This document shows positions 26,780 to 63,090 of a stretch of DNA of 64,000 nucleotides, one piece after another. The DNA is from a virus. Below the pieces are notes generated by a model that saw only the letters and a list, made by a program, of their open reading frames with translations, was not told the origin of the DNA and made no database searches. Position 1 is the stretch's first letter, and every line of letters begins with the position of its first letter. Where the stretch lies: IMG/VR virus record IMGVR_UViG_3300029243_000160, positions 64,001 through 128,000 of that record; one strand, given 5' to 3'. The position numbers and the translations under genes are program-made.

Positions 26780-29620
26780 ATGGCGAATCAAGTGAGACCT
26801 GCTTCCGAAGAGGACAAGAACAAACTGAAAGAAGCGTTCACAAAGCTATGGAACGCACTTCGCTCTATCTTCAATAAGAGAAGTGTTGTGGAGCGAATGG
26901 AAAAAATGCAACAGGAAATGGACTATATGCTGGCTCAGAACGGCATGACCGAAGATGCAGTGAAGGAACTGACAGAAACATTCAATACAATGTCTGGTCG
27001 CCTGCATACGCTTACTCCGGAAAATGTCGATGCGTTTGTAGACGAGTTGCAGCAGTCTATCAGAATTGTTGCTGAAAGGAATGAAGAATCTTATACTTCT
27101 CCGGAATTTTCAGATGATTTTATCAAAAAAATCGCATATTATGTCAAGGCTGACCCCAGCGAAGCTTTTGCTGAGGACTTGATGAAGAACGCACAGGTTG
27201 TCAAGATTGATGGCGACAACGAAAATGCCATCTTATCATACAAAGGACACTGCATGATGGCGAGACTTGATGAAAGACAAAAGCAAATCGTTCTGATAAT
27301 GAGTGCTATCCCACCGGAACAATCTGTTTTCACTGAAAACGGAGAACTTGCACAAGGATATTCTTTTGCGGAAATTCCAGAAGATATGCAGGGAAATGCA
27401 AAGCTTGTTTTGCTAAATGCACTTTGCGAACAAAGCGATAAAACTTTTGTGTACGACAAAGAAAAGGAACAACGCCGGATTCTTGAAGAAGCAAAGAAAA
27501 AAGTTTCTCCGCAGGCAAGATTCCTTGGTGAACGGTACGAAACTGCTGTACAGGAATCAGACAATCTGGAGAGTATTTATAAGCGTGATGATGCAACTTT
27601 CCGGATTCGTGACAAAGCAACTGGCGAAATGCTCCGTATCAAGTCTGACAAAGACAAAATGCAGGTATTCCTTTCTCAGGACACCCAGAGTTTCGATGTG
27701 CCAAAAGGCAGTAAAGAAATTCTGCTTGGACAGTGGGAACAGAAAGAAAAAGGAATCCTTGCAGGCAAATTCCGTCTTTCTCTTGGCAGTGACAACGTAA
27801 CATCTATGCTCCGAAGTGACGCTGTTCAGAAATGGTTTGAAATGAACGGTATCTCTCTGGAAGCACAAAACCAGTCCTTCCACCACAGAACAGACAGCAA
27901 GGCAACATGGAGCAAAGTAGACGAAGCGAAAATGTCCAACGTAATTGCTCTTCAAGAATCGTGTGCAAGGTCGATTGCTAAAAATCACCCTGATGAAAAG
28001 ATTATCGCTTCGGTTTACGAAACAACTCCGAAGAAGAAAAACCACAACAAAACATACACATTCCTGAATGTCGTGAAAGATGAAGGGAAAGGTGAAGAAA
28101 ACCCGAAGCTTTCTATCTCCTTCAATTCAGACGGCACACCGCTGACAATCAATTACAACAATCAGTTCGCATACAATATCGCAGCTCGTACTACTTCTGA
28201 GAACTATCATACGATTCTGTGGAACGACCCTGCATTCCGTGAATTGTACAATATTGCTGTTGACGCTTTACAGGAACAGGGCTTGGACAGAGGCATCTTG
28301 AAGTTCGGCGATGTTCCTTACGAGAAACAGGAAACTGCAAAGCCAGAATCTTCTTACACAGCAATCTACACTGCTGTTCCGCTTGAAGAACGTGGCTTGA
28401 CCAAACAGGATATGGATTCTTGGATTCCATTACATGAAAAAAATGATGCAAAAATCATCAACCAGCTTGCTCTGAGTGCAATTCGGAACGGAAGCATTTC
28501 CATGAAGGAAATCAAGCAAGAAACCAAAGGACACACTATCAAGACAAAGCAGGCATTGGACACTTTAGTGAAATTGGGAGTGGTTTCTGAAAGTTTGAAA
28601 CATGAAAGTCTGATGTCCGAAGAAGACTATGCAAAGGCAATCAGTGACCTTGCCAGAAATCCGCAGGCAAGAGCAGAATTTGCATCGCTTTCCAATTCTG
28701 ATGCTGAACAGAACAATTTCACAACCTATCTGACTGATTCCTATGAAGATGCTTGTCAGTATGACTGGAATCCGTATCTTGTTCTGAATAAAACAGAATA
28801 CGGTCTGGCTGATGTTGTCATGTCTGCCATCGAAACCAGACTGAACAACGGACACGACAGCATCGACTTGGCAAAGCTCCAGAGATTGACCGGAAAATCA
28901 TCACAAGAGGCAAGCAATATTATGGTTGAGCTGGAACGCATGGGTATTGTGGAAGGCGAAAACGATAAAAAGATTCTCGTTTCCAGTGATGATATTGCTC
29001 ATCTGAAAGAAGTTGCTCTCCAGCATGAAATGTCTCACGATATGGGTACACTGGAGTATGCAGAAGCAATCACTGAACTGGTTATGGAAACTATTGAAAA
29101 AGGCAGCATTTCCGTTGATGACATAATCATAAATCCTTCGATGGCTGAAAAGAATGTTAATGCAAGCAGTGCAATTCACACGCTGGAAGAACTCGGCGTA
29201 ATTTCCGGCGATGATGCTCATACCTGCCTTGTTACACAGGAAGAATACGCTCAGAAGTTCAAGGAAGGCAATTCTGATGCCTTCACAAATCTGCTTGCTA
29301 TCAGCTACGCAGAGTACACACGAGAAGAAAAGGCAGACCGTGACGAATCTATCCCTGAAAAAACAGACAGCAAGGAAGAAATTTCTTCTCCGACTGAGCC
29401 TGAACATGATGAAATTCCGGAAATGCCACCGTTCGATGAACACGACCCCTATGAAGATTATCCGGAGCAGGAAGATGCTGCGTTCGACCCGAACTATCCG
29501 TCAGATGAACTGCCAGAAGACCCTTATAGTGACGTAGAGGACAACTTCCAATTTGAAAATATGCCTGAACCGCCGGAAGAACCAGATATGAATAACGACC
29601 TTGACATGAGCTTAGACTGA
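26780..29620 (+). CDS. large protein with three FtsK-gamma-like wHTH repeats and acidic P/E/D tail
   Basis: ATG 26780 with AGAAAGGAAAA RBS. Repeats end in ALDTLVKLGVVSE, IMVELERMGIVEGE and AIHTLEELGVISGD. Confidence 0.75.
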   Translation: MANQVRPASEEDKNKLKEAFTKLWNALRSIFNKRSVVERMEKMQQEMDYMLAQNGMTEDAVKELTETFNTMSGRLHTLTPENVDAFVDELQQSIRIVAERNEESYTSPEFSDDFIKKIAYYVKADPSEAFAEDLMKNAQVVKIDGDNENAILSYKGHCMMARLDERQKQIVLIMSAIPPEQSVFTENGELAQGYSFAEIPEDMQGNAKLVLLNALCEQSDKTFVYDKEKEQRRILEEAKKKVSPQARFLGERYETAVQESDNLESIYKRDDATFRIRDKATGEMLRIKSDKDKMQVFLSQDTQSFDVPKGSKEILLGQWEQKEKGILAGKFRLSLGSDNVTSMLRSDAVQKWFEMNGISLEAQNQSFHHRTDSKATWSKVDEAKMSNVIALQESCARSIAKNHPDEKIIASVYETTPKKKNHNKTYTFLNVVKDEGKGEENPKLSISFNSDGTPLTINYNNQFAYNIAARTTSENYHTILWNDPAFRELYNIAVDALQEQGLDRGILKFGDVPYEKQETAKPESSYTAIYTAVPLEERGLTKQDMDSWIPLHEKNDAKIINQLALSAIRNGSISMKEIKQETKGHTIKTKQALDTLVKLGVVSESLKHESLMSEEDYAKAISDLARNPQARAEFASLSNSDAEQNNFTTYLTDSYEDACQYDWNPYLVLNKTEYGLADVVMSAIETRLNNGHDSIDLAKLQRLTGKSSQEASNIMVELERMGIVEGENDKKILVSSDDIAHLKEVALQHEMSHDMGTLEYAEAITELVMETIEKGSISVDDIIINPSMAEKNVNASSAIHTLEELGVISGDDAHTCLVTQEEYAQKFKEGNSDAFTNLLAISYAEYTREEKADRDESIPEKTDSKEEISSPTEPEHDEIPEMPPFDEHDPYEDYPEQEDAAFDPNYPSDELPEDPYSDVEDNFQFENMPEPPEEPDMNNDLDMSLD

Positions 29621-32502: not shown

Positions 32503-32771
32503 CAGTGTTAAACTTCAAAAATTGGTGTTAAGTTGGTGTTAAATTTTGGCTGTGCGATTGTTCCAGCCCTTGATTTTACTAACTTTCACTGTTCAAACTT
32601 TTCATTGTCGGGAATAATAAAACATATAAAATGAATCTTTTTCAAATGTCTTCATATCCCTACAAGCCTGTATTTTCACAAGTTTGAGCAAAATTTCGCA
32701 TTATGGGGAAATCACATATCTCTACTTAACTGTGCTTAACTTTTGGTAAGCTGTTGTTAAACGATTGTTAA
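32503..32771. repeat. cluster of TGTTAA-type short repeats (candidate integrase arm-type sites)
   Basis: TTGGTGTTAA x2 in tandem (32522-32531, 32533-32542); GTGTTAAAC (32505); inverted CTTAAC x2 (32725, 32735); TTGTTAA x2 (32754, 32765). The cluster ends 15 bp from the int stop. Confidence 0.5.
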
Positions 32772-32786
32772 GTCTCGCATTGTCGG

Positions 32787-34070
32787 CTATCGTTTTCTTG
32801 CACCTAATGGATTGCAAACATACTTACGTTCTCCGGACTGTTTTTCTTTCAGTCCATCGAAGTATTCGCCGAGTGATTTCATTTCCATTTGTTTCAGTTC
32901 TTTGGTTGCGTCTGCATAGATGTTCATGGTTGTCTCTGCATCTGCGTGACCCAAGATTTCCTGCATCGCTTTGATGTTGACACCAGCTTCGCACATTCGT
33001 GTTGTGAACGTATGTCTGAGATAGTGACAGCTGAATGGTGGAAGCGTAAGCCCCATCTTGTCAAGCTGTTTGAAGTTGCAATCTCGGATAATTCTTTTCA
33101 GTGCTTTGTTGAGTGTTCCCTGATGCTGAACATTCCCAAAACGATTGATAAAAATAAAATCTGTATAGCCGTCAATCTTTGACTTGCATACCAAATTATT
33201 TTCTTTTTGATACTGTCGTTCCATTCGGAACATTTCCTTGACAATCGGCAACATCGGAATGGTTCTTTCCCCTGCCTTTGTCTTCGGAAGGTTTACTGCG
33301 AAACCACAGGTTTCTTCTCCCGCACGTCTTCTGTCGAAGTACACCAGCGTGTGATTGACGCTGATTGCTTCGTTCTCCATGTCGAGGTCGCACCAGCGTA
33401 AACCTGTTACTTCTCCGACACGCATTCCGGTGTAAAGCATTACCATAAAAATCGGTTGCCAATGCTGATACTCTGGAGTAAGTGCCAGATAATTTTCAAA
33501 AACTTCCTGCTCTTTCACGGTTAAAGCTCTTCTTTTCATAATATCACGTTCCCTTGCTTTTTTCAATTCTTTCAATGCTCCGTCTGACGGATTGAACCTC
33601 ATGTATTCGTCTTCTACACCAAGTTCCAGAACCTGATGCAGGACTGTGTGTACACTGTCCACCGTACTGACTTTCAAGCTTCTTGTTTCTGCAAGGTAGT
33701 TGTAAAAAGCTCTGACATCTGACTTTCGCAGGTCGTCAATTTTTGTGTTTCCGAAGTCTGGTTCAACAAACTGTTCGTACATATAGCAATAGTTCGTGAA
33801 GGTGTTGACTTTCAATCCACGCTTCACCTGTTTCCATCTGCAATATAAATCGTTGATAGTCATATTCTTGCTATCCGGATTTATGCCGTCCAGCATATCC
33901 CTCAGAACATCGGTTTCTTTCTCTCGCAAATCTTCAAGCGTCTTTCCATACACTGTTCTTCGCCTGCCTGTTTTATCACGCCAGCGAAATTCATATGTGC
34001 CGTTTGGACGCTCGTATTCTCCTTCTTTGAGAACACGTCTTTTGCTGTCTTTTCTTCTCTCTACTGCCAT
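32787..34070 (-). CDS. int: tyrosine recombinase / integrase, Tn916-Int-like
   Basis: N-terminal arm-binding-type segment RVLKEGEYERPNGTYEFRWRDKTGRRRTVYGKTLEDLREKE. C-terminal catalytic boxes HYLRHTFTTRM and LGHADAETTMNIYAD. RBS AAGGAGAAAG. Confidence 0.9.
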   Translation of the reverse strand: MAVERRKDSKRRVLKEGEYERPNGTYEFRWRDKTGRRRTVYGKTLEDLREKETDVLRDMLDGINPDSKNMTINDLYCRWKQVKRGLKVNTFTNYCYMYEQFVEPDFGNTKIDDLRKSDVRAFYNYLAETRSLKVSTVDSVHTVLHQVLELGVEDEYMRFNPSDGALKELKKARERDIMKRRALTVKEQEVFENYLALTPEYQHWQPIFMVMLYTGMRVGEVTGLRWCDLDMENEAISVNHTLVYFDRRRAGEETCGFAVNLPKTKAGERTIPMLPIVKEMFRMERQYQKENNLVCKSKIDGYTDFIFINRFGNVQHQGTLNKALKRIIRDCNFKQLDKMGLTLPPFSCHYLRHTFTTRMCEAGVNIKAMQEILGHADAETTMNIYADATKELKQMEMKSLGEYFDGLKEKQSGERKYVCNPLGARKR

Positions 34071-34192: not shown

Positions 34193-34390
34193 TTAAATCG
34201 AATACGCTTTCGCAAGGTATTCGTCCAGCTTCTTTCGCTTTATCAGACGTTTGCTTCCGTTCCAAAGTACAAAAGAGCAGTTATCATCATTTGACATTTC
34301 CCTCAGTTTGTTGATGCCGATACCGCAATATGCACTCGCCTCTTCCAGTGTCAGATTTGTTTTTTCCCATAGTGGAATTTGAATTGCCAT
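34193..34390 (-). CDS. xis: excisionase-family HTH protein
   Basis: 65 aa. LTLEEASAYCGIGINKLREM HTH. Lies directly upstream of int. RBS AGAAAGGAG. Confidence 0.8.
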   Translation of the reverse strand: MAIQIPLWEKTNLTLEEASAYCGIGINKLREMSNDDNCSFVLWNGSKRLIKRKKLDEYLAKAYSI

Positions 34391-34408: not shown

Positions 34409-34470
34409 TTACTCTGTATTATATCCGTTATTTTCATTTACAATATATCAATTTCCCGAAGCACTGTCAA
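34409..34470 (-). promoter_or_regulatory. xis/int promoter (TTGACA-17-TATATT) with ATAACGGATAT motif downstream of the TSS
   Basis: -35 at 34465-34470, -10 at 34442-34447, motif at 34409-34431 abutting the RBS. Confidence 0.65.
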
Positions 34471-34543
34471 GAAGTAATTTACATAAGTCTTTATAACAGA
34501 AAAAATCCCCCGAAACGAACAGTTCCGAAGGCTTATGTGACTG

Positions 34544-34579
34544 CAAAAAAATAAAACCGCTGCCAGCGAGACAACGGTT
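34544..34579 (-). terminator. rho-independent terminator
   Basis: Minus-strand AACCGTTGTC-TCGCT-GGCAGCGGTT followed by TTATTTTTTT. Confidence 0.6.
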
Positions 34580-34647
34580 CTACTTCTTACAAATATAACG
34601 ATGAATAGCACACAAGAGGTGATTAACTTGTATACTTCCATGTTTGT

Positions 34648-34676
34648 ATTATACCACTTTTGCGAACACAAGTCAA
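34648..34676 (-). promoter_or_regulatory. promoter TTGACT-17-TATAAT (drives a ~100-nt unit ending at the 34544-34579 terminator)
   Basis: Read directly. The GTACACTACTGTGC block of the promoter cassette sits just upstream of the -35 here (34677-34690). Confidence 0.55.
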
Positions 34677-34748
34677 GCACAGTAGTGTACATTCTACCTT
34701 TTGCACAAAATGACGACTTTCTTTTTCATCTTTCTTACAAGTGTTGCA

Positions 34749-38394: not shown

Positions 38395-38934
38395 TTACAA
38401 GGATTTCTCAGCTTCTGCGATTTTATCCAGTTTTTGATTGATTTCATCAACCTTATTCGCAATATCCATAATGTCAAAATGTGTGGTTGTGAATACGATA
38501 TAATCACTGACACGCATCGAAAGAGCTGCTGCTCTCTTCTTGATTTCTTCAAATGCCTCTGGCGTAATTCTGATATTCAGCTGAGTGCTTCCTGCTTTTT
38601 CTATTTCTGGTTCTGAGTAGCTTGCTTTACTCATTGTTTTTTCTCCTTTGCCTTTGATATTGCTTACGTCTACGCCTCGGCACTTTGCCAGTGCATTGGT
38701 TTTGTTCAAGGCATCATTCAGTAAGCCGGACACGTTGTTCAGGTCAAACGAAAGTGCCGTATACAGCACATATTCGCTGATTGTAATGCCGTATTTTTCA
38801 CATGATGTGCGAATTTTTTCATTGGAAACAGCATCAACATAGACGTGCATACGTTTTGTCTTTGCTCCTTCCAAGTAGCGGATATTTTCTCCAAAAAGAG
38901 CATAAGCCCTTTCCATTCTGTTTCCTACTGCCAT
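38395..38934 (-). CDS. tandem ribbon-helix-helix (MobC/CopG-like) DNA-binding protein
   Basis: Two RHH-like units: MHVYVDAVSNEKIRTSCEKYGITISEYVLYTAL and LNIRITPEAFEEIKKRAAALSMRVSDYIVFTT. Confidence 0.6.
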   Translation of the reverse strand: MAVGNRMERAYALFGENIRYLEGAKTKRMHVYVDAVSNEKIRTSCEKYGITISEYVLYTALSFDLNNVSGLLNDALNKTNALAKCRGVDVSNIKGKGEKTMSKASYSEPEIEKAGSTQLNIRITPEAFEEIKKRAAALSMRVSDYIVFTTTHFDIMDIANKVDEINQKLDKIAEAEKSL

Positions 38935-38982: not shown

Positions 38983-39011
38983 ATTATAGCCAATCGTGTA
39001 CATAAAAGCAA
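38983..39011 (-). promoter_or_regulatory. promoter TTGCTT-ttatGTACACgattggc-TATAAT
   Basis: 17-bp spacer with the GTACAC block at the same position as in the other cassette promoters. Confidence 0.6.
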
Positions 39012-41356: not shown

Positions 41357-41385
41357 ATTATAGCACAGTAGTGTACAAATGTCAA
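41357..41385 (-). promoter_or_regulatory. cassette promoter TTGACAtttGTACACtactgtgcTATAAT
   Basis: Identical to the copy at 62952-62980. Confidence 0.7.
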
Positions 41386-43990: not shown

Positions 43991-44183
43991 CTTCTGAAAT
44001 TATCTTATCAAGATATTCAGATACACCTGTTTTTTTGACCTCAGATAATAGCTTTTCAGCTTCTTCACGGTTATCGCTCGCCGTAATAGGTTCGTACTTA
44101 AACAAATTGTATTCATCGTTAGTTATAAGCACGATATTCTTTTCTTCCGTGTTCATCTCTTCGGCTATAATATACTTTTTCAT
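43971..44183 (-). CDS. hypothetical protein (70 aa)
   Basis: Strong RBS GGAGGAG 7 nt before the ATG. Its 3' end runs into the truncated paralogue. Confidence 0.6.
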   Translation of the reverse strand: MKKYIIAEEMNTEEKNIVLITNDEYNLFKYEPITASDNREEAEKLLSEVKKTGVSEYLDKIISEAPRHCK

Positions 44184-44315
44184 ATCGGTTCTCCTCCAGT
44201 GTAAATTTTTATTGACAAATTAGGAAAAAGCATTGCAGATGTCGATATAACATCATACACCTTTACTTTATCTAATCTGCCAGTACCTGTTCCTAACAGC
44301 GGCATTGCTACTGTG

Positions 44316-45047
44316 CTATATCAATTTATTTCCCAGTTTTTCATACGCTGGTTGGAGCTGTTCTGCAATCGCTTTGTAGTCCCTGCACTGCCGGATTCCC
44401 TGTTCTACTTCTATCTCGTCAAAATGCTCTGCAATCATATCACAAAGAAAGCAAAAGTAATTGTCCAGATGTGGTGGTGTCCACATATCGGAACGGCACA
44501 AGAAAATGCCGTCATACTTCTCTTCTTTTTCTTCCAGTGTAGCAAGATTCAGTGAAAGCACATTTCTGAGAGCTTTGTCTTCTTTTACTTCTTTGTCCAA
44601 GCCGAACATTTCTATGGAGATTGGATTTGCTATCCATCTCAGCTTCATCTTGTACTCGTCCAGAAGGTATGAAATCCAGTTGCCACAATCCAGATGCTTA
44701 TTGTTATTCGTAAAGTCGTGGTGCATATCTATGTTTACCAGAGAAAGCTTTTCATCTTCTGACACATAGTCATGTACAAAGTCATACACATGGACATGGC
44801 TGTTTGCAATCATCACCGGAGTGTCTGGAGATTGCTTCTTTAAGATACGCTTCAAGCATTCCAATTCTTCTTCCAGAATGCCCACAGAACGCACCAGATT
44901 GGCTTGTGTGCCACCTAGGTAGTAAGATGCCCATATCAGTGTGGACAGTTCCGTGGAGTGGTCTACGCCGTCCGGAAAGCTTCTCACAGCTTCTTTTGTG
45001 ATTTTCAGAAAATAATCAAAATCAATAGAAAGGATTCGCTTAATCAC
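44316..45047 (-). CDS. conserved hypothetical protein (243 aa) with HHD / DCGNW / WTPPHLD motifs
   Basis: GTG 45047 start overlapping the upstream stop (GTGATTAA) with GAGGA RBS. Family not recognised. Confidence 0.6.
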   Translation of the reverse strand: MIKRILSIDFDYFLKITKEAVRSFPDGVDHSTELSTLIWASYYLGGTQANLVRSVGILEEELECLKRILKKQSPDTPVMIANSHVHVYDFVHDYVSEDEKLSLVNIDMHHDFTNNNKHLDCGNWISYLLDEYKMKLRWIANPISIEMFGLDKEVKEDKALRNVLSLNLATLEEKEEKYDGIFLCRSDMWTPPHLDNYFCFLCDMIAEHFDEIEVEQGIRQCRDYKAIAEQLQPAYEKLGNKLI

Positions 45048-45675
45048 GTTCCATATCCTCGCTGGTCTTCTGAGCTTCTTCATATTCATTATGAAGAAAC
45101 TCGCTGTAGCTTGCGTATACAGAGCCGTCCTCGAATCCGTATTCCTGTACATACTGGTCGAAGGTCATTTCTTTTGCCTCTTCACAGTTCTCATAAGCTG
45201 CTTCTGTAGCAGTCATGGTCACGTCATCTATATGGTCTGCAATCCATTCCTTCTTGTATTCTTCATACGCATTGAACTTTGTGGCATCAGCATACGGCGA
45301 TTTTTCAAAGAAATCCGAAAAGTATACAACTCGCAAGTCGTTCTTTCTTCCAAACTCCAGTGCTGCATTGCCTGCCCAGTTTGGAACGCCCTGCTTCTCC
45401 ATTTCATTCATCATATCTTTAATAGACAAATCGTCTTGCTTTACTGCGTTTCTCAACTCATTTACATCTTCTTTGGTATATCGGGTAAATCCGCTTGTGT
45501 TTGTTCCGTCCTCAATTGCTCTTACTGCCAGTTCTGCATTTTTCAGCTCGATATTGTCCAGCTTCAAGCAGTGTTCCCAGTACATTGCACCTTTCAAAGT
45601 CTCCTCAACTTCTGGCGTAACCTCATAACTCTTGTCGCCACAGTACAACATATAGTTTCCGTTCTCGTTTTTCAT
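45040..45675 (-). CDS. acidic hypothetical protein (211 aa)
   Basis: RBS GAGAAAGGAC. First gene behind the cassette promoter at 45777-45842. Confidence 0.65.
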   Translation of the reverse strand: MKNENGNYMLYCGDKSYEVTPEVEETLKGAMYWEHCLKLDNIELKNAELAVRAIEDGTNTSGFTRYTKEDVNELRNAVKQDDLSIKDMMNEMEKQGVPNWAGNAALEFGRKNDLRVVYFSDFFEKSPYADATKFNAYEEYKKEWIADHIDDVTMTATEAAYENCEEAKEMTFDQYVQEYGFEDGSVYASYSEFLHNEYEEAQKTSEDMERD

Positions 45676-45776: not shown

Positions 45777-45842
45777 ATTATAGCACAATAGTGTACAAAA
45801 GTCAAGCAATAACTGTTGTTTACTCTGTAAATTATCCGTTAT
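45777..45842 (-). promoter_or_regulatory. full cassette: ATAACGGATAATTTACAGAGTAA motif + TTGACTtttGTACACtattgtgcTATAAT
   Basis: -10 at 45777-45782, -35 at 45800-45805, motif at 45820-45842. Confidence 0.7.
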
Positions 45843-45870
45843 GTTTTTCAAACACATTTGTGCAAGCATA

Positions 45871-45900
45871 CAAAAAAGCCACTCTCTTGCGAAAGTGACT
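45871..45900 (-). terminator. rho-independent terminator
   Basis: Minus-strand AGTCACT-TTCGCAAGAG-AGTGGCT followed by TTTTTTG and GTATGCTTGCACAAA. Confidence 0.55.
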
Positions 45901-45924
45901 TCAATGTTGAAGAATATGCTATTT

Positions 45925-47271
45925 TCAATTTTTCAGGAGCATGATGTCGTCAGCAGCATAGCCTGTATCATTTTTTGCATAGCGAATGACAAGCGTATTT
46001 GTGCCATTGCTGTATGCAGTGAAGTTGTTTCCAATATCCTCAATTTCTTTTCCGTCACCAAGCAGTGCAATGATTTCTTCCTTGCTCATACCAACATGAA
46101 TGCCTTCGCAGAACTCCACAACATAGTCATCTTCTTTTGTAAAGAAGTCACTCGTTTTGAATCCTTTGACAAGATACTTGTCTGCATCAGCTTTCCTCTG
46201 GTCATTGGCAGGAATCAGCTTACCGTCCTTATCGACTACTTCAATGGAAATGAGCGTCTTGTCTTCTGCTTCGCTTTCATCTTCATACATATTACCGTTG
46301 AAGTATAAGAAACTGTAATCACATACAGAACCGCCCAGAGCCACGTTCAGTTTCATTGTCTTTACAAAGTCAGCCAGAGAAATATCATCATTCAGATGAA
46401 TCTCCACACCGTTGACAACTGCCTTTGACAAATCAACATTCTCGGAAACATTCTTCGGCACATCAGGCACAAGCACAGTTTCTGTAGTTGTAGTAGTTTC
46501 CGTGGTCGGTGCAGTGCTTTCTGTGGTAGATGTTGAAGTATTTCCAGACACCGTTGTTGTAGTCTGCTCTGTAGTCTTTACAGGAGCTTCTGTTGCACTC
46601 GGCTGTTCTGTCGTTGCAGCCGTGGTCGGCTTCTTTGTAGTAGTGGTAGTCGGTTTCTTCGTTGTCTGCGAAGGCTTTTTCGTTGTTGCTTTTGTAGTGG
46701 TCTTTGTGGTAGCCTTCGTGGTCTTCTGCGTAGCCTTTGTTGTCTTTTTTGTGGTCTGAGCAGGTGCGTTGTCTACAGGCTGATTATTGCTTGCAGGCTG
46801 TGTCTGAGCTGGCGAATAGTTATTTCCACCATTGTCACTGTTTGTATAAGTCACATTCTCTGCATTCGATTTCGGCTTGTTGTCAGAAACCGGAATTGCC
46901 ACATACGGCACATTGCTGTTAGATGAACCGCCGGAACTGCTGCCAGCCGAACCTGTTGCAGAACGTGTGGAACGGCTGTGAACAGCGGTTACGTTTGTTC
47001 CATCACTCTTAATACCTTTCCCTGTGCCTGTTTTGGTAGTTGTCTTTCTGGTAGAAGAGGTCGTTGCTGTACCGCTGGTTGTCGATGCCTCTGTTGTACT
47101 TGTGGAGCTGGTGTCATAGTCACCCTGCTCTGCCACAATTTCCAATTTGTTCTGATTTTCTGCTTCTTTGGCTTTATCTCCGGTAGTGTCACCGCACCCT
47201 GTCATAGAAGCACACAGGCAGGCAGCACAAACCATAGATGCAACCGTTTTCCATTTTGCTCGTTTCTTCAT
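45925..47271 (-). CDS. lipoprotein with Thr/Lys-rich repeat region (paralogue family A)
   Basis: Lipobox ...CASMTGCGD. TTKATQKTTKATTKTTTKATTKKPSQTTKKPTTTTTKKPTT low-complexity region. The C-terminal domain is shared with 48068-48814 and 53300-54247. Confidence 0.8.
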   Translation of the reverse strand: MKKRAKWKTVASMVCAACLCASMTGCGDTTGDKAKEAENQNKLEIVAEQGDYDTSSTSTTEASTTSGTATTSSTRKTTTKTGTGKGIKSDGTNVTAVHSRSTRSATGSAGSSSGGSSNSNVPYVAIPVSDNKPKSNAENVTYTNSDNGGNNYSPAQTQPASNNQPVDNAPAQTTKKTTKATQKTTKATTKTTTKATTKKPSQTTKKPTTTTTKKPTTAATTEQPSATEAPVKTTEQTTTTVSGNTSTSTTESTAPTTETTTTTETVLVPDVPKNVSENVDLSKAVVNGVEIHLNDDISLADFVKTMKLNVALGGSVCDYSFLYFNGNMYEDESEAEDKTLISIEVVDKDGKLIPANDQRKADADKYLVKGFKTSDFFTKEDDYVVEFCEGIHVGMSKEEIIALLGDGKEIEDIGNNFTAYSNGTNTLVIRYAKNDTGYAADDIMLLKN

Positions 47272-49882: not shown

Positions 49883-49936
49883 ATTATAACACATTGCAAT
49901 ATTACATTGCAATTTACTCTATCTATTATCCGTTAT
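49883..49936 (-). promoter_or_regulatory. ATAACGGATAATAGATAGAGTAA motif + promoter (TTGCAA-18-TATAAT)
   Basis: -10 at 49883-49888, motif at 49914-49936. The leader before the RBS AAGGAGAG is very short. Confidence 0.55.
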
Positions 49937-50306: not shown

Positions 50307-50372
50307 AGTATAGCACAATAGTGTACAAAAGTCAAGCACAAATCAAATTTTACTCTGTAAATTATTCGTTAT
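50307..50372 (-). promoter_or_regulatory. full cassette: ATAACGAATAATTTACAGAGTAA + TTGACTtttGTACACtattgtgcTATACT
   Basis: -10 at 50307-50312, -35 at 50330-50335, motif at 50350-50372. Confidence 0.7.
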
Positions 50373-50400
50373 CAAAACAAATGATTTTTGTGCAAACATA

Positions 50401-50428
50401 CAAAAAGAGCAGGAACTTGCCCTGCTCT
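50401..50428 (-). terminator. rho-independent terminator
   Basis: Minus-strand AGAGCAGG-GCAAGTT-CCTGCTCT followed by TTTTTG and GTATGTTTGCACAAA. Confidence 0.7.
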
Positions 50429-50438
50429 CTTGCTAATA

Positions 50439-52448: not shown

Positions 52449-52514
52449 ATTATAGCATAATAGTGTACAAATGTCAAGGTATATTAAGGTGTTACTCTGT
52501 AGATTATTCGTTAT
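52449..52514 (-). promoter_or_regulatory. full cassette: ATAACGAATAATCTACAGAGTAA + TTGACAtttGTACACtattatgcTATAAT
   Basis: -10 at 52449-52454, -35 at 52472-52477, motif at 52492-52514. Confidence 0.7.
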
Positions 52515-52543
52515 GTTTTTCGTAATTATTTGTGCAAGCATAC

Positions 52544-52569
52544 AAAAAGAGCAGGTTATCTGCCTGCTC
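52544..52569 (-). terminator. rho-independent terminator
   Basis: Minus-strand GAGCAGG-CAGATAA-CCTGCTC followed by TTTTTG and GTATGCTTGCACAAA. Confidence 0.7.
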
Positions 52570-52570: not shown

Positions 52571-53098
52571 TTACAATTCCTGTTTCAAAGAGATGCCGAG
52601 CTTGTGAAACCGCATTTTGATTTCCTGCACACACGCTATGCCGATGCCTGTACAGTTCAAAAGTTCTTTTTCACTGTATTGTTTCAGAATCCCGATGGTA
52701 TCAATATCGTTGGATTTTAATGCTGTCGATGTCCGGAAAGAAAATCCAGCTTTCAAAACCGATGTATTTAGCAGCGGATTGGTTTCTGTCGGATTTCTTC
52801 TGCATCGGACTGAAAAGTATTCATCTTCCATAACACCGCCAAAATCCCGAACTACTTGTCGGATTCGCTCTTTTGTTACGCCGTACTCGTCAGCCAATCG
52901 TTCCAACGTATAGAAGTTGATATATCTTTTTTGAATGATTTCAGCATTTCTCTCATCGGTTCTGTAGAAGGCAGATTCTATCACTTCAACAAGCACATTA
53001 TGTTTTTCCTCGTCCAAGTCAATTCCGATTCGTTCCAGCATATCCTTCTGGAACGCTTTTCTACACAGCAGAGTGTTAATCTGCTCTTTACCTGTCAT
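52571..53098 (-). CDS. fusion of sigma-70 region-4-like HTH and RNA polymerase alpha-CTD-like domain
   Basis: AEIIQKRYINFYTLERLADEYGVTKERIRQVV matches the sigma region 4.2 pattern. FSFRTSTALKSNDIDTIGILKQYSEKELLNCTGIGIACVQEIKMRFHKLGISL aligns by eye with E. coli alpha-CTD [53 protein letters not shown]. Confidence 0.75.
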   Translation of the reverse strand: MTGKEQINTLLCRKAFQKDMLERIGIDLDEEKHNVLVEVIESAFYRTDERNAEIIQKRYINFYTLERLADEYGVTKERIRQVVRDFGGVMEDEYFSVRCRRNPTETNPLLNTSVLKAGFSFRTSTALKSNDIDTIGILKQYSEKELLNCTGIGIACVQEIKMRFHKLGISLKQEL

Positions 53099-53145: not shown

Positions 53146-53174
53146 ATTATAGCACAGTAGTGTACATTTGTCAA
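53146..53174 (-). promoter_or_regulatory. cassette promoter TTGACAaatGTACACtactgtgcTATAAT
   Basis: 17-bp spacer. Drives the sigma4/alpha-CTD gene. Confidence 0.7.
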
Positions 53175-56270: not shown

Positions 56271-56468
56271 TCATATGAGTGTTTCCCCTCTGTGCTGTTC
56301 AATCCAGTGTTCCAGTTCAACAGAATCTACACGATAAATGCGACCAAACCGAATTACCGGAAAGCCGTCAGAGTTCATCAGCTCAATTGCTTTTTTTCTC
56401 CCGATATTGAAGATTTTCTGAACATCTTCCACACTATAAAATCGTCTTTTTACATCTGTTTCTTGCAA
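56271..56468 (-). CDS. excisionase-family/MerR-like small HTH protein
   Basis: TTG start with AAGAGGTGA RBS. YSVEDVQKIFNIGRKKAIELMNSDGFPVIRFGRIYRV. Confidence 0.6.
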   Translation of the reverse strand: MQETDVKRRFYSVEDVQKIFNIGRKKAIELMNSDGFPVIRFGRIYRVDSVELEHWIEQHRGETLI

Positions 56469-56484: not shown

Positions 56485-57384
56485 TCAGCATACAGTCAGC
56501 AGGATTTTTGCAATTGCCAGAACCGCCAGATGTGCAGGATAAAAATATCTGCAAGTGACAATACAGGCTTTACTTTTCAGAATCTTTGTCAGCCATTTCG
56601 GAAGAATAAAGCACTTATGCTTTTCACTGCACTGTGCAAAGAAAAACAGAATCAGCAACAAAAATGTTGCCAGATAAACTGTAATATTACTTCCCATTGA
56701 CAAGATGAAAATTCCCATCGCAACAATCTGCCACAGCCACTTGCAATGCTTTCTGTTTCTTGCAAAATTGAACAGACCAACGAGCAGGATTCCTCTCCAG
56801 CTGTAATCAACTTTGAAATAATATGCCAGTGCAAAAATCACACCAAAAACAATTCCTGTTCCGCAATTCACAGCAAGCTTTCTTACTTTTCCAGTTCCAA
56901 AAAACTTGCTCCAGCATTTCTGATTACTCTGCAAATTATCCGTTATTGTCAGCATTAAAAAGCAAAGGAAGAATGTGAAAATCGTATTCTGCCCTTTGAA
57001 AATGTCCATGCTGATTTCGGTCGGGTTTTGCAAAGTTAATGCGAGGTCAAAAGGAATTTCAGATACCAACGCAAGCACTATCAAGCGTATCAGATGTCGC
57101 ATTGGATTTTGTGTGTGATAGAAGCTTTCTACAAACAGAAAAGCAAAGATAGGAAATGCAAATCTTCCGACAATGAGACACCACAGTTCTGCATTGTCGC
57201 CGATTACTCCGGTACTATACAATACCTTTCCCAAGTGGTCTGTTACCATTGTCAGAACCGCAATGATTCTGAGCAGGTAATACCATTCTGTTGAGATGCG
57301 TTCTGGACGAGTGGCAGTAATCGCTTTCTGCTCTGTCAAACGATGCTGCTTTTTCTCCATACGGATTGAACTTCTTTTTCCCAT
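56485..57384 (-). CDS. traX: TraX-family polytopic membrane protein
   Basis: WYYLLRIIAVLTMVTDHLGKVLY and multiple TM helices. Start uncertain (ATG 57384 or GTG 57396). Confidence 0.65.
   Translation of the reverse strand: MGKRSSIRMEKKQHRLTEQKAITATRPERISTEWYYLLRIIAVLTMVTDHLGKVLYSTGVIGDNAELWCLIVGRFAFPIFAFLFVESFYHTQNPMRHLIRLIVLALVSEIPFDLALTLQNPTEISMDIFKGQNTIFTFFLCFLMLTITDNLQSNQKCWSKFFGTGKVRKLAVNCGTGIVFGVIFALAYYFKVDYSWRGILLVGLFNFARNRKHCKWLWQIVAMGIFILSMGSNITVYLATFLLLILFFFAQCSEKHKCFILPKWLTKILKSKACIVTCRYFYPAHLAVLAIAKILLTVC
56924..56946 (-). promoter_or_regulatory. intragenic copy of the ATAACGGATAATTTGCAGAGTAA motif inside traX
   Basis: 22/23 match to the 45820-45842 copy. In frame it encodes ITDNLQS. 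Confidence 0.5.
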
Positions 57385-57418
57385 ATGATGATACACTCCT
57401 TTTTATAGTACATTATTT

Positions 57419-57474
57419 ATTATAGCCGTTTCATCAATCTATGTCAACCGTTACTGAATGTTTATATCCGTTAT
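57419..57474 (-). promoter_or_regulatory. promoter TTGACA-17-TATAAT with variant upstream motif ATAACGGATATAAACATTCAGTAA
   Basis: -10 at 57419-57424, -35 at 57442-57447, motif at 57451-57474. Confidence 0.6.
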
Positions 57475-61453: not shown

Positions 61454-62257
61454 TCAAAAAAGTTGAATGTGTTTCAGTCCTTTTTCAAGGTCAAAGTCCG
61501 GATAAGGTTCTCTCTTACTCAGATTCCGGAGCAGGTTTTCATATTCCAGAATGTTATTCATAAGAGCCGACATATCTTCTTTCAGTTCTGTCAGTAACTG
61601 ATTGTGAGATACTTCTCCCCATTCGCCCCACTGTTGACAGGGGTTATGGTCGATTTCAGAATGGTCTTTTCTGCCGTAGGTGTCTGTCGCAATAGTGATT
61701 CTCTCAGCAATTTCAGCAACAGTCTTATCGCCCTCATTGGCTACAGAATAATTGACTGCAAAGCTATTTGTCTGTGCTGTGTTCTCCGCAGAGAATGCAA
61801 GACGGTCTGCTGCCAGTCTGCGTTCCCATTCGTCTTTATCAAATGAGCCACGCTTTTTTGCTCTCTTGGTACGAACTTCTTCTGATGCGTTTACTTGTAC
61901 TACAAAGCAATCATATTTTCCGAAGTAAGAAACATAGTCCTTTGCTCCCTGCACATCTACGATAGCCACATAGTCCTGCTCTGGGTTTAACTGCATCTTT
62001 GGAGTGCCATAATACCAGACATCTTCCTTGCCGTTCCAGATAGTGTTGTAAGAACGATACTCAAAGAATCGTCCCTCAGAGATGCCCTTTTCAAATTCCT
62101 TTCTGGAGATAAAGTTGTAGTCCTTGCCGTTGACCTCTCCCTTACGCATCGGACGTGTAGTGGTTGTCACGATTTCACGGAATCCGTGATTCGCAACCAG
62201 TTCTCTCAGAATTGCATCTTTGCCACTTGCAGACATTCCTATCAGTATCGTCAACAT
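61454..62257 (-). CDS. guanylate-kinase-like P-loop kinase with ~100-aa C-terminal extension
   Basis: GMSASGKDAI P-loop and TTTTRPMRKGEVNGKDYNFISRKEFE..FFEY (Gmk pattern). RBS GAAAGGTGGAA. Confidence 0.75.
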   Translation of the reverse strand: MLTILIGMSASGKDAILRELVANHGFREIVTTTTRPMRKGEVNGKDYNFISRKEFEKGISEGRFFEYRSYNTIWNGKEDVWYYGTPKMQLNPEQDYVAIVDVQGAKDYVSYFGKYDCFVVQVNASEEVRTKRAKKRGSFDKDEWERRLAADRLAFSAENTAQTNSFAVNYSVANEGDKTVAEIAERITIATDTYGRKDHSEIDHNPCQQWGEWGEVSHNQLLTELKEDMSALMNNILEYENLLRNLSKREPYPDFDLEKGLKHIQLF

Positions 62258-62316
62258 AAATCATTCCACCTTTCTATTTGTTCCTTACTGTTAGTTTTCG
62301 TTTGTTTTCGTTTCTT

Positions 62317-62901
62317 TCAGACATGAAACTCGGTCTTTACAAGCCAGTATGTTTCAGCCTTTTTCAAATTTTTCTCACGCTCTGCACGTTCCATGCTACG
62401 ACGCTTATCAATCAAGACAATTGCTTTTTCTTTCAATGCCTTGATTCTTTTCTGTGTTGTTTCCGGTCTGAGGTCTTTTCTGCATACCGGACAAATATTC
62501 GGACAAATATTCGACCGCAGATATTTCAGTGCAATTTTTGAACCGCAGTTCTTACAGCCAACAGTTGCACTCTTATGATTTCCAAAATGAAACGCTTCGT
62601 TCAATGTACGATAAGCCACAATTGCCTGTCTTGCCTTTTCTGTAGTGTTTTCCAGAGCCTTGGAAGGCACGAAGTCATTCTGATACTTGAACTGAACCGC
62701 AACCTGTCTGTAAAAGCCACCCAGATTATTCAGATATTTCTCTGCATCTTCTCTGCTGTCAAAGCAACGATTCTGCCACTCGATGCTTGTGATTGGTGTA
62801 TGATAATCACCGTCACGTTCTGCACGAGCAGAAACCATCGCAAGAATCCGTTCTTTGCTTGTTGTCACCTTAAAATCGTCATGATGAATTTCGTGTCCCA
62901 T
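62317..62901 (-). CDS. hypothetical protein with zinc ribbon (CKNCGS...CPNICPVC)
   Basis: RBS AAGGAG. First gene behind the cassette promoter at 62952-63017. Contains a 12-bp tandem duplication (62489-62512, NICPNICP). Confidence 0.6.
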   Translation of the reverse strand: MGHEIHHDDFKVTTSKERILAMVSARAERDGDYHTPITSIEWQNRCFDSREDAEKYLNNLGGFYRQVAVQFKYQNDFVPSKALENTTEKARQAIVAYRTLNEAFHFGNHKSATVGCKNCGSKIALKYLRSNICPNICPVCRKDLRPETTQKRIKALKEKAIVLIDKRRSMERAEREKNLKKAETYWLVKTEFHV

Positions 62902-62951
62902 AATTCAAAACTCCTTATTTTTTGTTTGGTTTCTTGTACCTTACATATATT

Positions 62952-63017
62952 ATTATAGCACAGTAGTGTACAAATGTCAAGTGCTTTTAGATGTTTACTC
63001 TGTAAAATATCCGTTAT
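62952..63017 (-). promoter_or_regulatory. full cassette: ATAACGGATATTTTACAGAGTAA + TTGACAtttGTACACtactgtgcTATAAT
   Basis: -10 at 62952-62957, -35 at 62975-62980, motif at 62995-63017. Confidence 0.7.
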
Positions 63018-63058: not shown

Positions 63059-63090
63059 TAAAAAAGCCAGTACCAAAACGATACTGACTT
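63059..63090 (-). terminator. rho-independent terminator (modest stem)
   Basis: Minus-strand GTCAGTA-9 nt-TACTGGC followed by TTTTTTATTG. Confidence 0.45.

Follow-up and report, generated by a model that had tools for sequence, protein, structure and literature searches.

An oriented 23-nt motif in the repeated terminator-promoter cassettes of a human-gut Firmicute conjugative element, a likely docking site for an element master regulator

At positions 45777-45902 of the DNA studied here, two transcription units are separated by an ordered series of a terminator, an inverted repeat, a short motif and a promoter, and the same series returns with variations along the element. This raises the question which signals the cassette carries and what reads them. 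The window, i.e., the whole analysed stretch of 64,000 nucleotides, belongs to a large conjugative element, integrative and plasmid-like, from human-gut Firmicutes. This element encodes Tn916-type Int/Xis, RepL, TraX and a NikA-like protein, and type IV secretion (T4SS) genes are present in its relatives. The genes of the element are split into about 15 short units, each of which is closed by an intrinsic terminator and restarted by a consensus sigma-A promoter. The recurring terminator/operator/promoter module proposed in the first-pass annotation of the sequence was recovered and stands at the start of about 15 transcription units. Elements of this kind are frequent in metagenomes of the human gut, where many samples together yield dozens of contigs of the window's lineage at 94-99% identity, and more than 1,900 homologues of the cassette-associated helicase were found. 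A megablast search against phage and plasmid collections gave no match, and IMG/VR contained a single contig only, which belongs to the same element. Annotation is almost absent across these elements.

The four parts at 45777-45902 (minus strand) read as they had been described, in gene order:

45875-45902, minus strand: terminator hairpin and T-run, a stem of 12 pairs with TTTGTATGCT behind it, which closes the upstream unit (gene 45925-47271)
45857-45874 (to 45875 at its widest), no strand assigned: inverted repeat TTTGT-N8-ACAAA, the second block; other copies at 41437, 50387, 52529 and 53228
45820-45842, minus strand: the motif, a consensus copy (ATAACGGATAATTTACAGAGTAA), 14 nt upstream of the -35
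45777-45805, minus strand: consensus sigma-A promoter TTGACTTTTGTACACTATTGTGCTATAAT, 11 of 12 matches, TG present, composed of TTGACT (45800-45805), TTT, GTACAC (45791-45796), TATTGTGC including the TRTG extended -10, and TATAAT (45777-45782); predicted targets are genes 45040-45675 and 44316-45152

The cassette promoter has the form TTGACW-WWT-GTACAC-N8-TATAAT and occurs in seven near-identical copies, of which those at 41357 and 62952 are identical, as stated before. A search with this pattern returned 8 matches, where 0.10 were expected, namely the seven cassette promoters and 34648. The earlier count of eight copies holds for seven, whereas 38983 is a degenerate copy and 34648 also matches the pattern. 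The cassette promoters are predicted ones, with 10-12 of 12 sigma-A positions, TG and a 17-nt spacer. Part of the block TAYTRTGC singled out before is what we take to be the ordinary Gram-positive TRTGn extended -10. The GTACAC block in the spacer had been suggested to be a second operator, and this is plausible since GTAC(A/T)C is kept at the fixed spacer position in the relatives. A subset of the cassettes carries TAAGGT, a -10-like sequence, at about +2 to +7, where Q-dependent promoters have their sigma-dependent pause elements. Further promoters of this kind are:

53146-53174, minus strand: cassette promoter without motif, which precedes the sigma4/alpha-CTD gene 52571-53098; L066 and L071 have no motif there either
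41357-41385, minus strand: cassette promoter with a decayed motif remnant only, RNase H-like gene; the L071 orthologue is also without motif
38983-39011, minus strand: degenerate cassette promoter TTGCTT ... GTACAC ... TATAAT without motif, NikA-like/S26 peptidase unit
34648-34676, minus strand: promoter with a TGTACACTACTGTGC block just upstream of the -35 and not in the spacer

The second block had been reported in four copies with a variant at 53228. These were found again, and the block is better described as the inverted repeat TTTGT-N8-ACAAA, of which there are five exact copies, all in cassettes and behind terminators; a description with N9 proved wrong. From its sequence, the repeat is a candidate dimeric operator overlapping the T-run. 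The intrinsic terminators consist of a GC-rich hairpin and a U-tract, with hairpins of -21 to -23.5 kcal/mol and z-scores of -4.3 and -7.5.

The motif itself is 23 nt long and asymmetric, ATAACGGATA-N5-CAGAGTAA, written as the consensus ATAACGRATA-N5-CAGARTAA, with an A/T-rich central N5 and without dyad symmetry. The 24-nt pattern given in the first-pass annotation contains a length error of 1 nt and finds one site only. With the real length, 11 sites with up to 3 mismatches were detected in the window, where 0.00 were expected, and two indel variants of 24 nt (21443 and 57451) add to these, in which a second TAACGG follows 20 nt downstream. The core ATAACGGATA is the most frequent non-trivial 10-mer of the window (11 exact copies). 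The 13 copies counted before are upheld in this form, and all 13 are co-oriented with the genes, usually 15-50 nt after a terminator. In addition to 45820 these are:

4077-4099, minus strand: motif, 3 nt upstream of promoter 4045-4073; RepL-like gene 3496-3984
10500-10522, plus strand: motif, after terminator 10457-10479 and 3 nt upstream of promoter 10526-10554, which is without GTACAC
14614-14636, plus strand: RBS-abutting motif in the order hairpin 14580-14595, motif, 5 nt, AAGG, ATG 14656; no sigma-A promoter after it
21443-21466, plus strand: 24-nt direct-repeat variant (ATAACGG ... GTAACGG, 20 nt apart), overlapping promoter 21457-21486
21736-21758, plus strand: RBS-abutting motif, 5 nt before the AAGGAG of gene 21777, which heads an operon to 32194; a strong terminator (~21682-21720, -23.5 kcal/mol) ahead, no sigma-A promoter after it
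34409-34431, minus strand: motif between the xis promoter and the xis RBS, about +4 to +26
34442-34470, minus strand: this xis promoter, TTGACA-17-TATATT, followed by xis (34193-34390) and int (32787-34070); same layout in L071
49914-49936, minus strand: motif, 1 nt upstream of promoter 49883-49912 (TTGCAA-18-TATAAT), which has its own ATTGCAATGT direct repeat; GmrSD-like gene
50350-50372, minus strand: motif, 14 nt upstream of promoter 50307-50335, with inverted repeat 50387-50404 and terminator 50403-50431; YodL-like gene
52492-52514, minus strand: motif, 14 nt upstream of promoter 52449-52477, with inverted repeat 52529-52546 and terminator 52550-52564; DUF5710/UvrD-type helicase, orthologous alignment available
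56924-56946, minus strand: motif inside the traX reading frame (codons I-T-D-N-L-Q-S-N), kept in traX of L066 and L071; the one copy of the 13 that lies in this frame
57451-57474, minus strand: 24-nt direct-repeat variant, second TAACGG abutting the -35 of the traX promoter 57419-57447; kept in L066
62995-63017, minus strand: motif, 14 nt upstream of promoter 62952-62980, with TGTACAAA 23 nt upstream and terminator 63064-63090 ahead

Positions A1 to C5, A17, G18 and A22 are invariant in 38 sites from five elements, many of which are paralogous or orthologous, so that these counts are not independent events; C5, G6, C16 and G18 are also given as invariant. To our knowledge, the motif fits no consensus of cre, Spo0A, CodY, LexA, Rex, TnrA, DnaA, IHF or sigma-54. 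It resembles GAGTAGTAAAT, presumably the arm-type site of a Tn916-type integrase, but no motif copies are present around the att junction at ~32.2-32.8 kb and this idea was therefore dropped. Only 5 exact matches were obtained in 185,579 GTDB reference genomes, all chance-looking and in coding sequence; the motif is therefore not part of a host regulon.

Six copies are located in transcribed leaders, 2-5 nt upstream of AAGGAG, and the motif could accordingly be thought to work as RNA, as an operator or enhancer of translation within 5' leaders. However, most copies lie upstream of the next gene's promoter, and RNA folding and alifold of the motif and of the motif-RBS modules detected neither structure nor covarying pairs, nor is there anti-Shine-Dalgarno complementarity. 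We regard a function at the RNA level as very improbable. A Rfam scan of the whole window gave 0 matches at the gathering threshold, and a tRNA scan found nothing.

The cassette was compared with four relatives, L066, L071, L073 and L074, whose helicases are 64-73% identical and whose candidate regulator is 49% identical. Motif and promoter persist in these elements, whereas the intervening DNA, flanks as well as the 14-nt gap, is scrambled with the spacer lengths kept, and in all four every copy with up to 2 mismatches is co-oriented with the genes. The gap between motif and -35 is bimodal, with 3-4 bp (n=11) or 13-14 bp (n=15) and a single case of 1 bp, and the two classes are one helical turn apart. 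At the orthologous helicase promoter the gap is 13-14 bp in the window, L066 and L071, and 3-4 bp in L073 and L074. The motif had been placed before either 1-12 bp upstream of the -35 or downstream of the transcription start next to the RBS. Both classes exist, but the upstream spacing in the window is 3 or 14 nt (1 nt at 49914). In the second placement, which is conserved as well, the motif stands 2-5 nt before the RBS, including the copy that separates the xis promoter from xis-int. In the window and in L071 the xis region has the identical layout TTGACA-17-TATATT-10 nt-motif-RBS-xis, and the motif therefore stands at a repressor position there. Presence or absence of the motif is conserved promoter by promoter among orthologues, and the promoters of the candidate regulator and of RNase H are among those without it. 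The inverted repeat is found in L073 and L074 in the form TTTGT/ACAAA with a variable centre. Across the relatives the motif comes in two types, with either CAGARTAA or ATACCNC in its second part.

In more distant relatives only the core ATAACGRA is kept, and its repeats, direct ones as well as inverted ones, cluster around the xis promoter. L076 has four tandem ATAACG units around this promoter and a palindrome, ATAACGAATCGTTAT, after the -10, and in L082 the arrangement is ATAACG-N14-ATAACGc-TTGACA. Such use of half-sites as direct as well as inverted repeats is typical of recognition by a protein.

These comparisons also bear on the idea that the cassette is a selfish or recombinogenic repeat, either MITE-like or a homology patch for shuffling, in which the motif has no specific regulatory role. 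The cassette copies are 75-90% identical over ~100 bp, one allele swap among near-identical relatives begins exactly at cassette 62952, and accessory units that differ between relatives each bring their own cassette. This swap and the cassettes of the accessory units are circumstantial evidence for cassettes as recombination joints. However, a second allele swap (43991-45000) is not at a cassette, terminal inverted repeats and target duplications are absent, orientation and position relative to genes are strict, and diverged orthologous sites keep the functional blocks and spacer lengths only. It is hardly conceivable that the cassette is nothing but such a repeat. Two of the findings named in the first-pass annotation as speaking against its reading were lack of the motif in related elements and a repeated insertion sequence; the motif is kept in diverged relatives, and the spacers between the blocks are scrambled at constant length.

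The position upstream of the promoter would also suit an UP-element-like or host-factor site, which is used by host alpha-CTD or a global regulator and boosts strong promoters. The proximal class, at about -39 to -61, has the position of an UP element and the distal class lies one turn farther; UP elements and class I activator sites share this position relative to the -35 and the tolerance of a one-turn shift, and the central N5 is A/T-rich. In contrast to the A/T tracts of UP elements, however, the motif has the invariant positions C5, G6, C16 and G18, and it also occurs without promoters, as the promoterless copies adjoin RBSs and one is inside traX. In addition, the exact motif is nearly absent from the reference genomes. 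We therefore consider this explanation very unlikely, and the earlier preference for a regulator site over an UP element is supported by the invariant positions and by the RBS-adjacent copies without promoter. The exact promoter distances that diverged relatives keep make a docking site of an element master regulator the most likely function of the motif.

Copies 14614 and 21736 stand, behind terminators and without a sigma-A promoter, at the start of operons measuring 6.8 and 10.4 kb, and could indicate that the motif itself is a promoter or its core, read either by an unrecognised polymerase of the element or by host RNAP aided by an element-specific factor. If transcription began around motif position 20-23, the copies next to an RBS would be full promoter-leader-RBS modules and the remaining ones tandem promoters. 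The short fixed Shine-Dalgarno distance fits such a compact promoter-RBS unit, the size of 23 bp together with the strict co-orientation is like that of T7-type promoters, positions 9-14 are -10-like (TAWTnT) with a perfect TATAAT in the xis copy, and the gene of a sigma region 4 protein is nearby. However, T at position 14 is present in 26 of the 38 sites only, and the sequence 17 nt upstream contains no -35-like block that is conserved. Tandem promoters would leave the strict phasing of 3-4 or 13-14 bp to the next -35 unexplained, as well as the direct and inverted ATAACG repeats at the xis promoter of L076.

The proteins encoded by the element speak against this explanation as well. The screen for polymerases and regulators covered ~64 kb plus ~40 kb of an element of at least 131 kb. 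Among its ~120 ORFs (~70 in the window and 51 elsewhere in the element) no RNA_pol, Sigma70_r2 or similar family was detected, i.e., no sigma region 2, and no single-subunit or YonO-like polymerase; the large orphan proteins are without a DxDGD motif, and the only sigma-type domain was a sigma region 4. That the motif acts as a promoter is thus unlikely in our view. Its more specific version, a private promoter of the size of a T7 promoter (-17 to +6), read by an element-reprogrammed host RNAP or by an unrecognised polymerase encoded beyond the sampled part of the element, is less likely again; the sigma4/alpha-CTD subunit mimic could, for example, be part of a split or surrogate sigma.

As another possibility, the motif could be the loading site for processive antitermination, in the form of qut-like DNA at promoters or of nut/boxA-like linear RNA after terminators, and after induction, RNAP that had passed it would ignore the element's many terminators. 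A terminator bounds every unit, the motif is orientation-specific and usually follows a terminator closely, and the TAAGGT in a subset of the cassettes would be in line with this. Processive antitermination is established for canT of Tn916 and ConAn1/conAn2 of pLS20, where terminators serve as insulators and an orientation-specific cis element controls read-through (PMC11658703), and the element studied here shares with them that they are Gram-positive conjugative elements and has Tn916-type Int/Xis. Most copies stand between a terminator and the promoter that follows. However, a motif after a terminator cannot help RNAP past that terminator, a promoter does not transcribe the copies upstream of its -35, and 14614 and 21736 are far from any promoter, which makes them unfit for qut-type loading. 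Whereas canT is a structured RNA of ~340-450 nt that occurs once, the motif has 23 nt and at least 13 copies, mostly outside the transcripts that would need its action, and its RNA is unstructured, unlike canT, EAR, put and conAn2. The leaders of promoters 10526 and 21457 share a separate element, which is a better antiterminator candidate and a better analogue of canT than the motif, with the terminators 10702-10730 and 21682-21720 as possible targets. Antitermination at the motif is therefore doubtful, to the same degree as a promoter function.

The sigma region 4 found in the screen belongs to a protein encoded close to one of the cassettes:

52571-53098, minus strand: protein of 175 aa in which residues 48-84 form a Sigma70 region 4 and residues 106-162 a domain like the RNAP alpha-CTD

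Its recognition helix, VTKERIRQ, is like that of primary sigma factors, and binding to TTGACA and not to the motif is therefore predicted. In the alpha-CTD, the equivalent of R265 is kept and those of N268, K298 and S299 are not. The L071 homologue is without alpha-CTD, and the motif is unchanged in L071. A role as motif binder is weakened by the helix and by this loss; going by its sequence, the protein is a candidate regulator but probably does not bind the motif. No Pfam, PHROG or NCBIfam match to a repressor of the L5 gp71 type, with HTH and stoperator domain, was obtained among the screened ORFs. A comparison of which window proteins the relatives have and lack, over loci of ~10 kb on each side of the helicase gene, gave no regulator candidate. 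Other candidate binders encoded by the element are two HTH_17 proteins (56271-56468 and Xis, 34193-34390), an 84-aa ORF (34438-34692), the RepL-like protein (3496-3984), the NikA-like protein (38395-38934) and a protein of the MerR family whose gene is located outside the window.

With slightly better than even confidence, we propose that the motif is a DNA operator, where an element-encoded regulator would touch RNAP at promoters and block it elsewhere, and that TGTACAC and the inverted repeat form a second operator set. What the sequences establish directly is the motif, with its enrichment and orientation, its conservation and the rules of its spacing, and from these we infer binding of a protein, its contact with RNAP, the sign of regulation and the nature of the binder. 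The recognition unit would be ATAACGRA, with the second block as a weaker contact or a contact of a second domain. Promoter-upstream sites would all face the same side of the helix, with 3-4 or 13-14 bp between them and the -35, which would imply a direct contact with RNAP or with a TGTACAC-bound protein. Because the promoters already are consensus promoters with an extended -10, the net effect would be to hold them in check.

This restraint could be modelled on phi29 p4 at strong promoters, or could result from cooperative repression together with a binder of TGTACAC or TTTGT-N8-ACAAA. The p4 protein, in the work of Monsalve et al. 1997, reportedly binds upstream, contacts RNAP and represses promoters with a consensus -35 by blocking escape, whereas it is said to activate a promoter without -35. 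Its sites are reportedly inverted repeats centred near -82 or -71. By analogy, p4 would be a precedent for an upstream, phase-dependent site that represses consensus promoters; a p4 homologue was not found here. At the RBS-adjacent copies (xis-int and the operons of 14656 and 21777) the same protein would act as an orientation-dependent roadblock, similar to a stoperator, and the combined outcome would be a switchable silencing across the whole element.

Some observations do not fit this operator model easily. For 14614 and 21736, which have no downstream sigma-A promoter, a promoter or antitermination role is at least as simple. A roadblock does not require a fixed distance of 2-5 nt to the Shine-Dalgarno sequence. 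The sites at -39 to -72 are at the classic activator position, and it is therefore uncertain whether the regulator would be a repressor or an activator.

The closest logic is that of the stoperators of cluster A mycobacteriophages, which are bound by the repressors of L5 (gp71) and TipsytheTRex as a monomer with two DNA-binding domains (PMC9283540). Both systems have many asymmetric copies across a mobile genome, in short intergenic gaps and oriented in the direction of transcription (PMC9283540), and in both the sites occur at promoters as well as within transcribed regions. In difference to the 13-bp stoperators, the motif has 23 bp, keeps a rigid phase relative to the -35 (3-4 or 13-14 bp) or the RBS, and is paired with terminators and the second operator TGTACAC; moreover, stoperators belong to phages, whereas here a conjugative, plasmid-like element with a Firmicute host is concerned. 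For IncP-1 plasmids (RK2/RP4), KorA, KorB, TrbA and KorC are described as cooperative plasmid repressors with operators at most backbone promoters (PMC4889941, PMC2665229); this backbone comprises replication, transfer and maintenance, and its strong promoters are kept under stringent control. Kor operators are palindromic and KorB can act at variable distances, whereas the motif is asymmetric, oriented and helically phased. The Kor proteins are unrelated to anything recognised here.

The cassette is a variant of this established logic of global regulons and stoperators. It forms a compact grammar for silencing or switching, made of a terminator as insulator, an inverted-repeat operator, an asymmetric operator at phased distances and a consensus promoter that contains an operator of its own. 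The cassette promoters and terminators are ready parts for genetic tools in gut Clostridia, and orthologous promoters whose gaps differ strictly by one helical turn offer a natural test of face-of-helix dependence that is unusually clean. If the private promoter were true, every sigma-A promoter in a family of gut conjugative elements would have a second, parallel programme of transcription beside it. If, as we favour, the motif is an orientation-dependent roadblock and promoter operator, stoperator-type silencing would extend from actinobacteriophages to conjugative elements of Firmicutes.

The recurrent cassette of about 120 bp described in the first-pass annotation, composed of terminator, operator and promoter, was recovered at 45777-45902, where its parts follow each other in gene orientation:

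45875-45902, minus strand: terminator, a 12-pair hairpin with a T-run
45857-45875, minus strand: TTTTGTATGCTTGCACAAA, the second block of the cassette
45820-45842, minus strand: the motif, ATAACGGATAATTTACAGAGTAA
between motif and promoter, minus strand: spacer of 14 bases without conservation
45777-45805, minus strand: promoter, TTGACTTTTGTACACTATTGTGCTATAAT

The motif length had to be corrected, as the proposed 24-nt pattern gives only one site in a pattern scan of the window because the variable centre comprises 5 nt and not 6. Written as ATAACGGATA-N5-CAGAGTAA, the motif has 11 sites at up to 3 mismatches (0.00 expected from shuffles), and ATAACGGATA, present in 11 exact copies, ranks first among the non-trivial 10-mers in the window. 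Variants of 24 nt at 21443 and 57451 carry a second TAACGG 20 nt past the first. All 13 window copies are oriented like the surrounding genes, as had been claimed. The promoter pattern has 8 matches (0.10 expected in the window); the copies at 41357 and 62952 are identical, and the site at 38983 is a degenerate copy. The second block also recurs, and is better described as an inverted repeat, TTTGT-N8-ACAAA, with five exact copies, each immediately after a terminator.

To follow the cassette, related metagenome contigs were taken at progressively greater distance, namely L066, L071, L073, L074 and L083, and then L076 and L082. L066 has a GC content of 33% (42% in the window), and its helicase of the DUF5710/UvrD type is 73% identical and its sigma4/alpha-CTD protein 49% identical to those of the window; helicase identity is 71% in L071, 67% in L073 and 64% in L074 and L083. 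In these five contigs motif and promoter recur upstream of genes, co-oriented without exception, so that the conservation in related elements asked for in the annotation was found. Alignment of the orthologous spacers between the sigma4/alpha-CTD gene and the helicase gene reveals that the hairpin is kept mainly as structure and the motif and the 29-bp promoter as sequence. The 14 nt between motif and promoter are scrambled. When 38 sites from five elements are compiled into a matrix, A1, T2, A3, A4, C5, A17, G18 and A22 are invariant, G6 is present in 36 and C16 in 35 sites, and the centre is variable and A/T-rich; since sites were picked by likeness to the pattern, conservation is somewhat overstated. 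A recent mobile repeat is ruled out by these comparisons. Presence and absence of the motif are conserved promoter by promoter, and neither the sigma4/alpha-CTD gene nor the RNase H-like gene has it at its promoter, be it in the window or in relatives.

The more distant L076 and L082, with helicases of 59-60% identity, retain the first block alone, as ATAACGRAWG, followed after 20 nt by ATACCNC adjoining TTGAAA. The xis promoter of L076 has four tandem ATAACG units, the last contacting the -35, and the palindrome ATAACGAATCGTTAT directly after the -10, and L082 shows the layout ATAACG-N14-ATAACGc-TTGACA. Such direct and inverted use of a short unit around a promoter has the appearance of a protein recognition site, unlike RNA elements or promoters. 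An RNA element is also opposed by the motif being unstructured, with zero consensus pairs among six motif-RBS modules and zero Rfam matches in the window. The annotation had preferred a regulator site over an UP element, and this reading holds, as motif composition, the promoter-less copies and the absence from reference genomes argue against an UP element or a host factor.

The motif ends 3-4 bp from the -35 in 11 of 27 promoter-associated copies, 13-14 bp from it in 15 and 1 bp from it in the remaining one, without intermediate distances, which replaces the 1-12 bp given earlier. The 13-14-nt spacers keep their length, with almost entirely different sequence. A long gap of 13-14 bp precedes the orthologous helicase promoter in the window and in L066 and L071, a short one of 3-4 bp in L073 and L074. 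Such a switch of one helical turn is the mark of a protein that has to keep to one face of the helix as seen from RNA polymerase or from a promoter-bound protein.

The putative second operator annotated in the promoter spacer is kept in its fixed position, as GTAC(A/T)C is found 3-4 nt past the -35 in cassette promoters of the window and six relatives (L066, L071, L073, L074, L078, L083). The rest of the TAYTRTGC block largely corresponds to the usual Gram-positive TRTGn extended -10. Upstream of the motif lies either the inverted repeat TTTGT-N8-ACAAA (variant at 53228, TTTGTGTACCTGTACAAA) or a single TGTACAAA about 23 nt ahead of the motif. Given these upstream elements and GTAC(A/T)C in the spacer, a single dimeric protein may bind on both sides of motif and -35. 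TGTACA is enriched 2.7-fold window-wide (39 copies, 14.5 expected), well past the cassette promoters, and two methylases, one of C5 type and one Dam-like, are encoded in other parts of the element. Many cassette promoters share a predicted transcript start, TGTAAGG(W)ACA, which lies some 8 nt past the -10 (window 62930-62951; cassettes of L008, L010 and L017; also L073, L074, L076 and L082); as this start includes a -10-like TAAGGT, it may serve as a sigma-dependent pause signal or as a 5'-end element.

A second, equally conserved placement has the motif followed after 2-5 nt by AAGGAG, with no sigma-A promoter downstream:

window: 14614, 21736, 34409
L066: 9786
L071: 8837, 17883

A strong terminator (-23.5 kcal/mol, z -7.5) precedes the copy at 21736, which heads a 10-kb operon without sigma-A promoter, and motif positions 9-14 resemble the -10 element TAWTnT, although T14 occurs in only 26 of 38 sites. 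A private promoter is thus kept as a live alternative; against it, a screen of about 70 ORFs of the window and 51 ORFs elsewhere in the same element yielded neither a sigma region 2 nor an RNA polymerase family, and DxDGD is absent from the large orphan proteins. At xis, the layout TTGACA-17-TATATT-10 nt-motif-RBS-xis-int is identical in the window and L071 and places the motif at about +4 to +26, where a DNA-bound protein can only repress. Within traX (56485-57396) an in-frame copy at 56924-56946 codes for I-T-D-N-L-Q-S-N; traX of both L066 and L071 retains it, with nucleotide identity over the initial three codons. This copy may be a regulatory site within the gene or simply reflect a conserved peptide.

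Antitermination is a further alternative: every unit is bounded by a terminator, and Tn916 (canT) and pLS20 are known to use processive antitermination (PMC11658703). However, the motif is unstructured and sits after terminators rather than before. Better candidates are the leaders of the two strong plus-strand promoters at 10526 and 21457 (10555-10760 and 21487-21735), which share an element of about 65 nt, including exact GCGGTAGCACC at 10598 and 21552, and each close with a strong terminator followed by a long operon:

10702-10730, plus strand: leader terminator
about 21682-21720, plus strand: leader terminator (-23.5 kcal/mol)

Both leaders have zero Rfam matches and look like attenuators or cis-acting antiterminators of the canT/EAR type.

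The 175-aa protein (52571-53098, minus strand) combines sigma-70 region 4 with an RNA polymerase alpha-CTD-like domain and is predicted to be expressed from a cassette promoter without motif. An exhaustive search returned one full-length homologue, the 49% identical protein of the syntenic L066, and many more small proteins pairing sigma4-like and alpha-CTD-like regions. The 175-aa protein may imitate subunits of RNA polymerase. The motif was not assigned to it because of three observations. The recognition helix, VTKERIRQ, is similar to that of region 4.2 in aligned sigma factors (primary-sigma consensus VTRERIRQ) and would predict binding of TTGACA-like DNA; its alpha-CTD keeps the equivalent of R265 and lacks N268, K298 and S299; and the L071 homologue has no alpha-CTD, yet the motif is unchanged there. 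Other candidates are two HTH_17 proteins (Xis and the product of the gene after traX), the RepL-like and NikA-like proteins and a MerR-family protein encoded beyond the window. In the related locus L072 an IS200/IS605-type pair (Y1 transposase and OrfB/TnpB, 6218-7896) lies between a 321-aa gene and the sigma4/alpha-CTD gene, close to the motif-less promoter of the latter.

Pfam searches identified the following genes:

32787-34070: Tn916-type integrase
14961-18539: large polyvalent protein

Further finds in the window are TraX, NikA-like, S26 peptidase, a RepL-like protein adjoining iterons, the DUF5710/UvrD-type helicase and a GmrSD-like protein, and numerous large acidic ORFs are without any family. 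Large, strongly acidic proteins of 566, 373, 325, 494, 797, 369 and 962 aa (10761-14577, 19937-21421, 22154-24547, 25668-29620) have zero Pfam or NCBIfam matches, and the sole PHROGs match, a weak one, links the 566-aa protein to a family without known function; two segments of the 797-aa protein resemble a DnaQ-like exonuclease by eye. Beside the RepL-like gene (3496-3984) iteron-like repeats at 4160-5060, probably a replication origin, include a 23-bp direct repeat (4162-4207), an 11-12-bp unit, TAGACTTCTATA, repeated about 18 times (4841-5055), and more copies of the related 10-mer TAGAAGTCTA at 4270 and 4345. Four tandem 66-bp units at 6482-6745 (GCACAAGTTGCA...CGTATCTGCGAGATGTAA), with k-mers recurring each 66 bp, may be centromere-like or coding repeats.

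A scan of 185,579 reference genomes for the exact motif gave no more than five chance-looking matches in coding sequence. The motif is present on a single 131-kb contig of IMG/VR and on 55 metagenome stretches, the majority 94-99% identical to the window and from human-gut samples. Two motif-bearing contigs (196 kb and 481 kb) hold extra cassette copies beyond the window. In five near-identical contigs (L007, L013, L018, L019, L048) homology to the window ends sharply at about 32597-32600, immediately past the integrase gene on its 3' side and probably at the attachment junction; the window junction, joining two convergent gene blocks, seems to differ (circular form or other integration site).

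The annotation had also proposed cassettes as recombination joints, for which the evidence is suggestive only. In the relative L052 two segments fall to 67-75% identity within otherwise 97-100% identical relatives, indicating putative allele replacement of single genes (44316-45152; 62317-62901). One divergent allele (62250-63000) starts exactly at the cassette at 62952, but the other (43991-45000) does not start at a cassette. Units differing between the window and L071 each carry their own cassette.

Taken on balance, we lean towards the motif as operator of an element-encoded regulator. At promoters this predicted regulator would work by phase-dependent contact. Since the core promoters match the consensus already and the site at xis is placed to repress, global silencing is favoured; it would proceed via cooperative repression with a TGTACAC binder or via a block of promoter escape like that by phi29 p4. 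A dual activator/repressor, lambda CI- or ImmR-like, is conceivable as well. Motif copies that follow a terminator or transcription start would work as oriented roadblocks, similar to the stoperator, a system with oriented sites as outlined in PMC9283540. Several copies begin 15-20 nt past the hairpin, a distance at which polymerase would stall with its active site at the U-tract.

In relatives found by the helicase, genes for a T4SS coupling protein and VirB4-like genes lie beside Tn916-type Xis/Int, which marks the element family as conjugative. The closest known logic is that of the stoperator system and of the IncP KorA/KorB global regulon, although the motif system belongs to neither. Judged from its sequence, the cassette is a real, conserved and element-wide cis-regulatory grammar.
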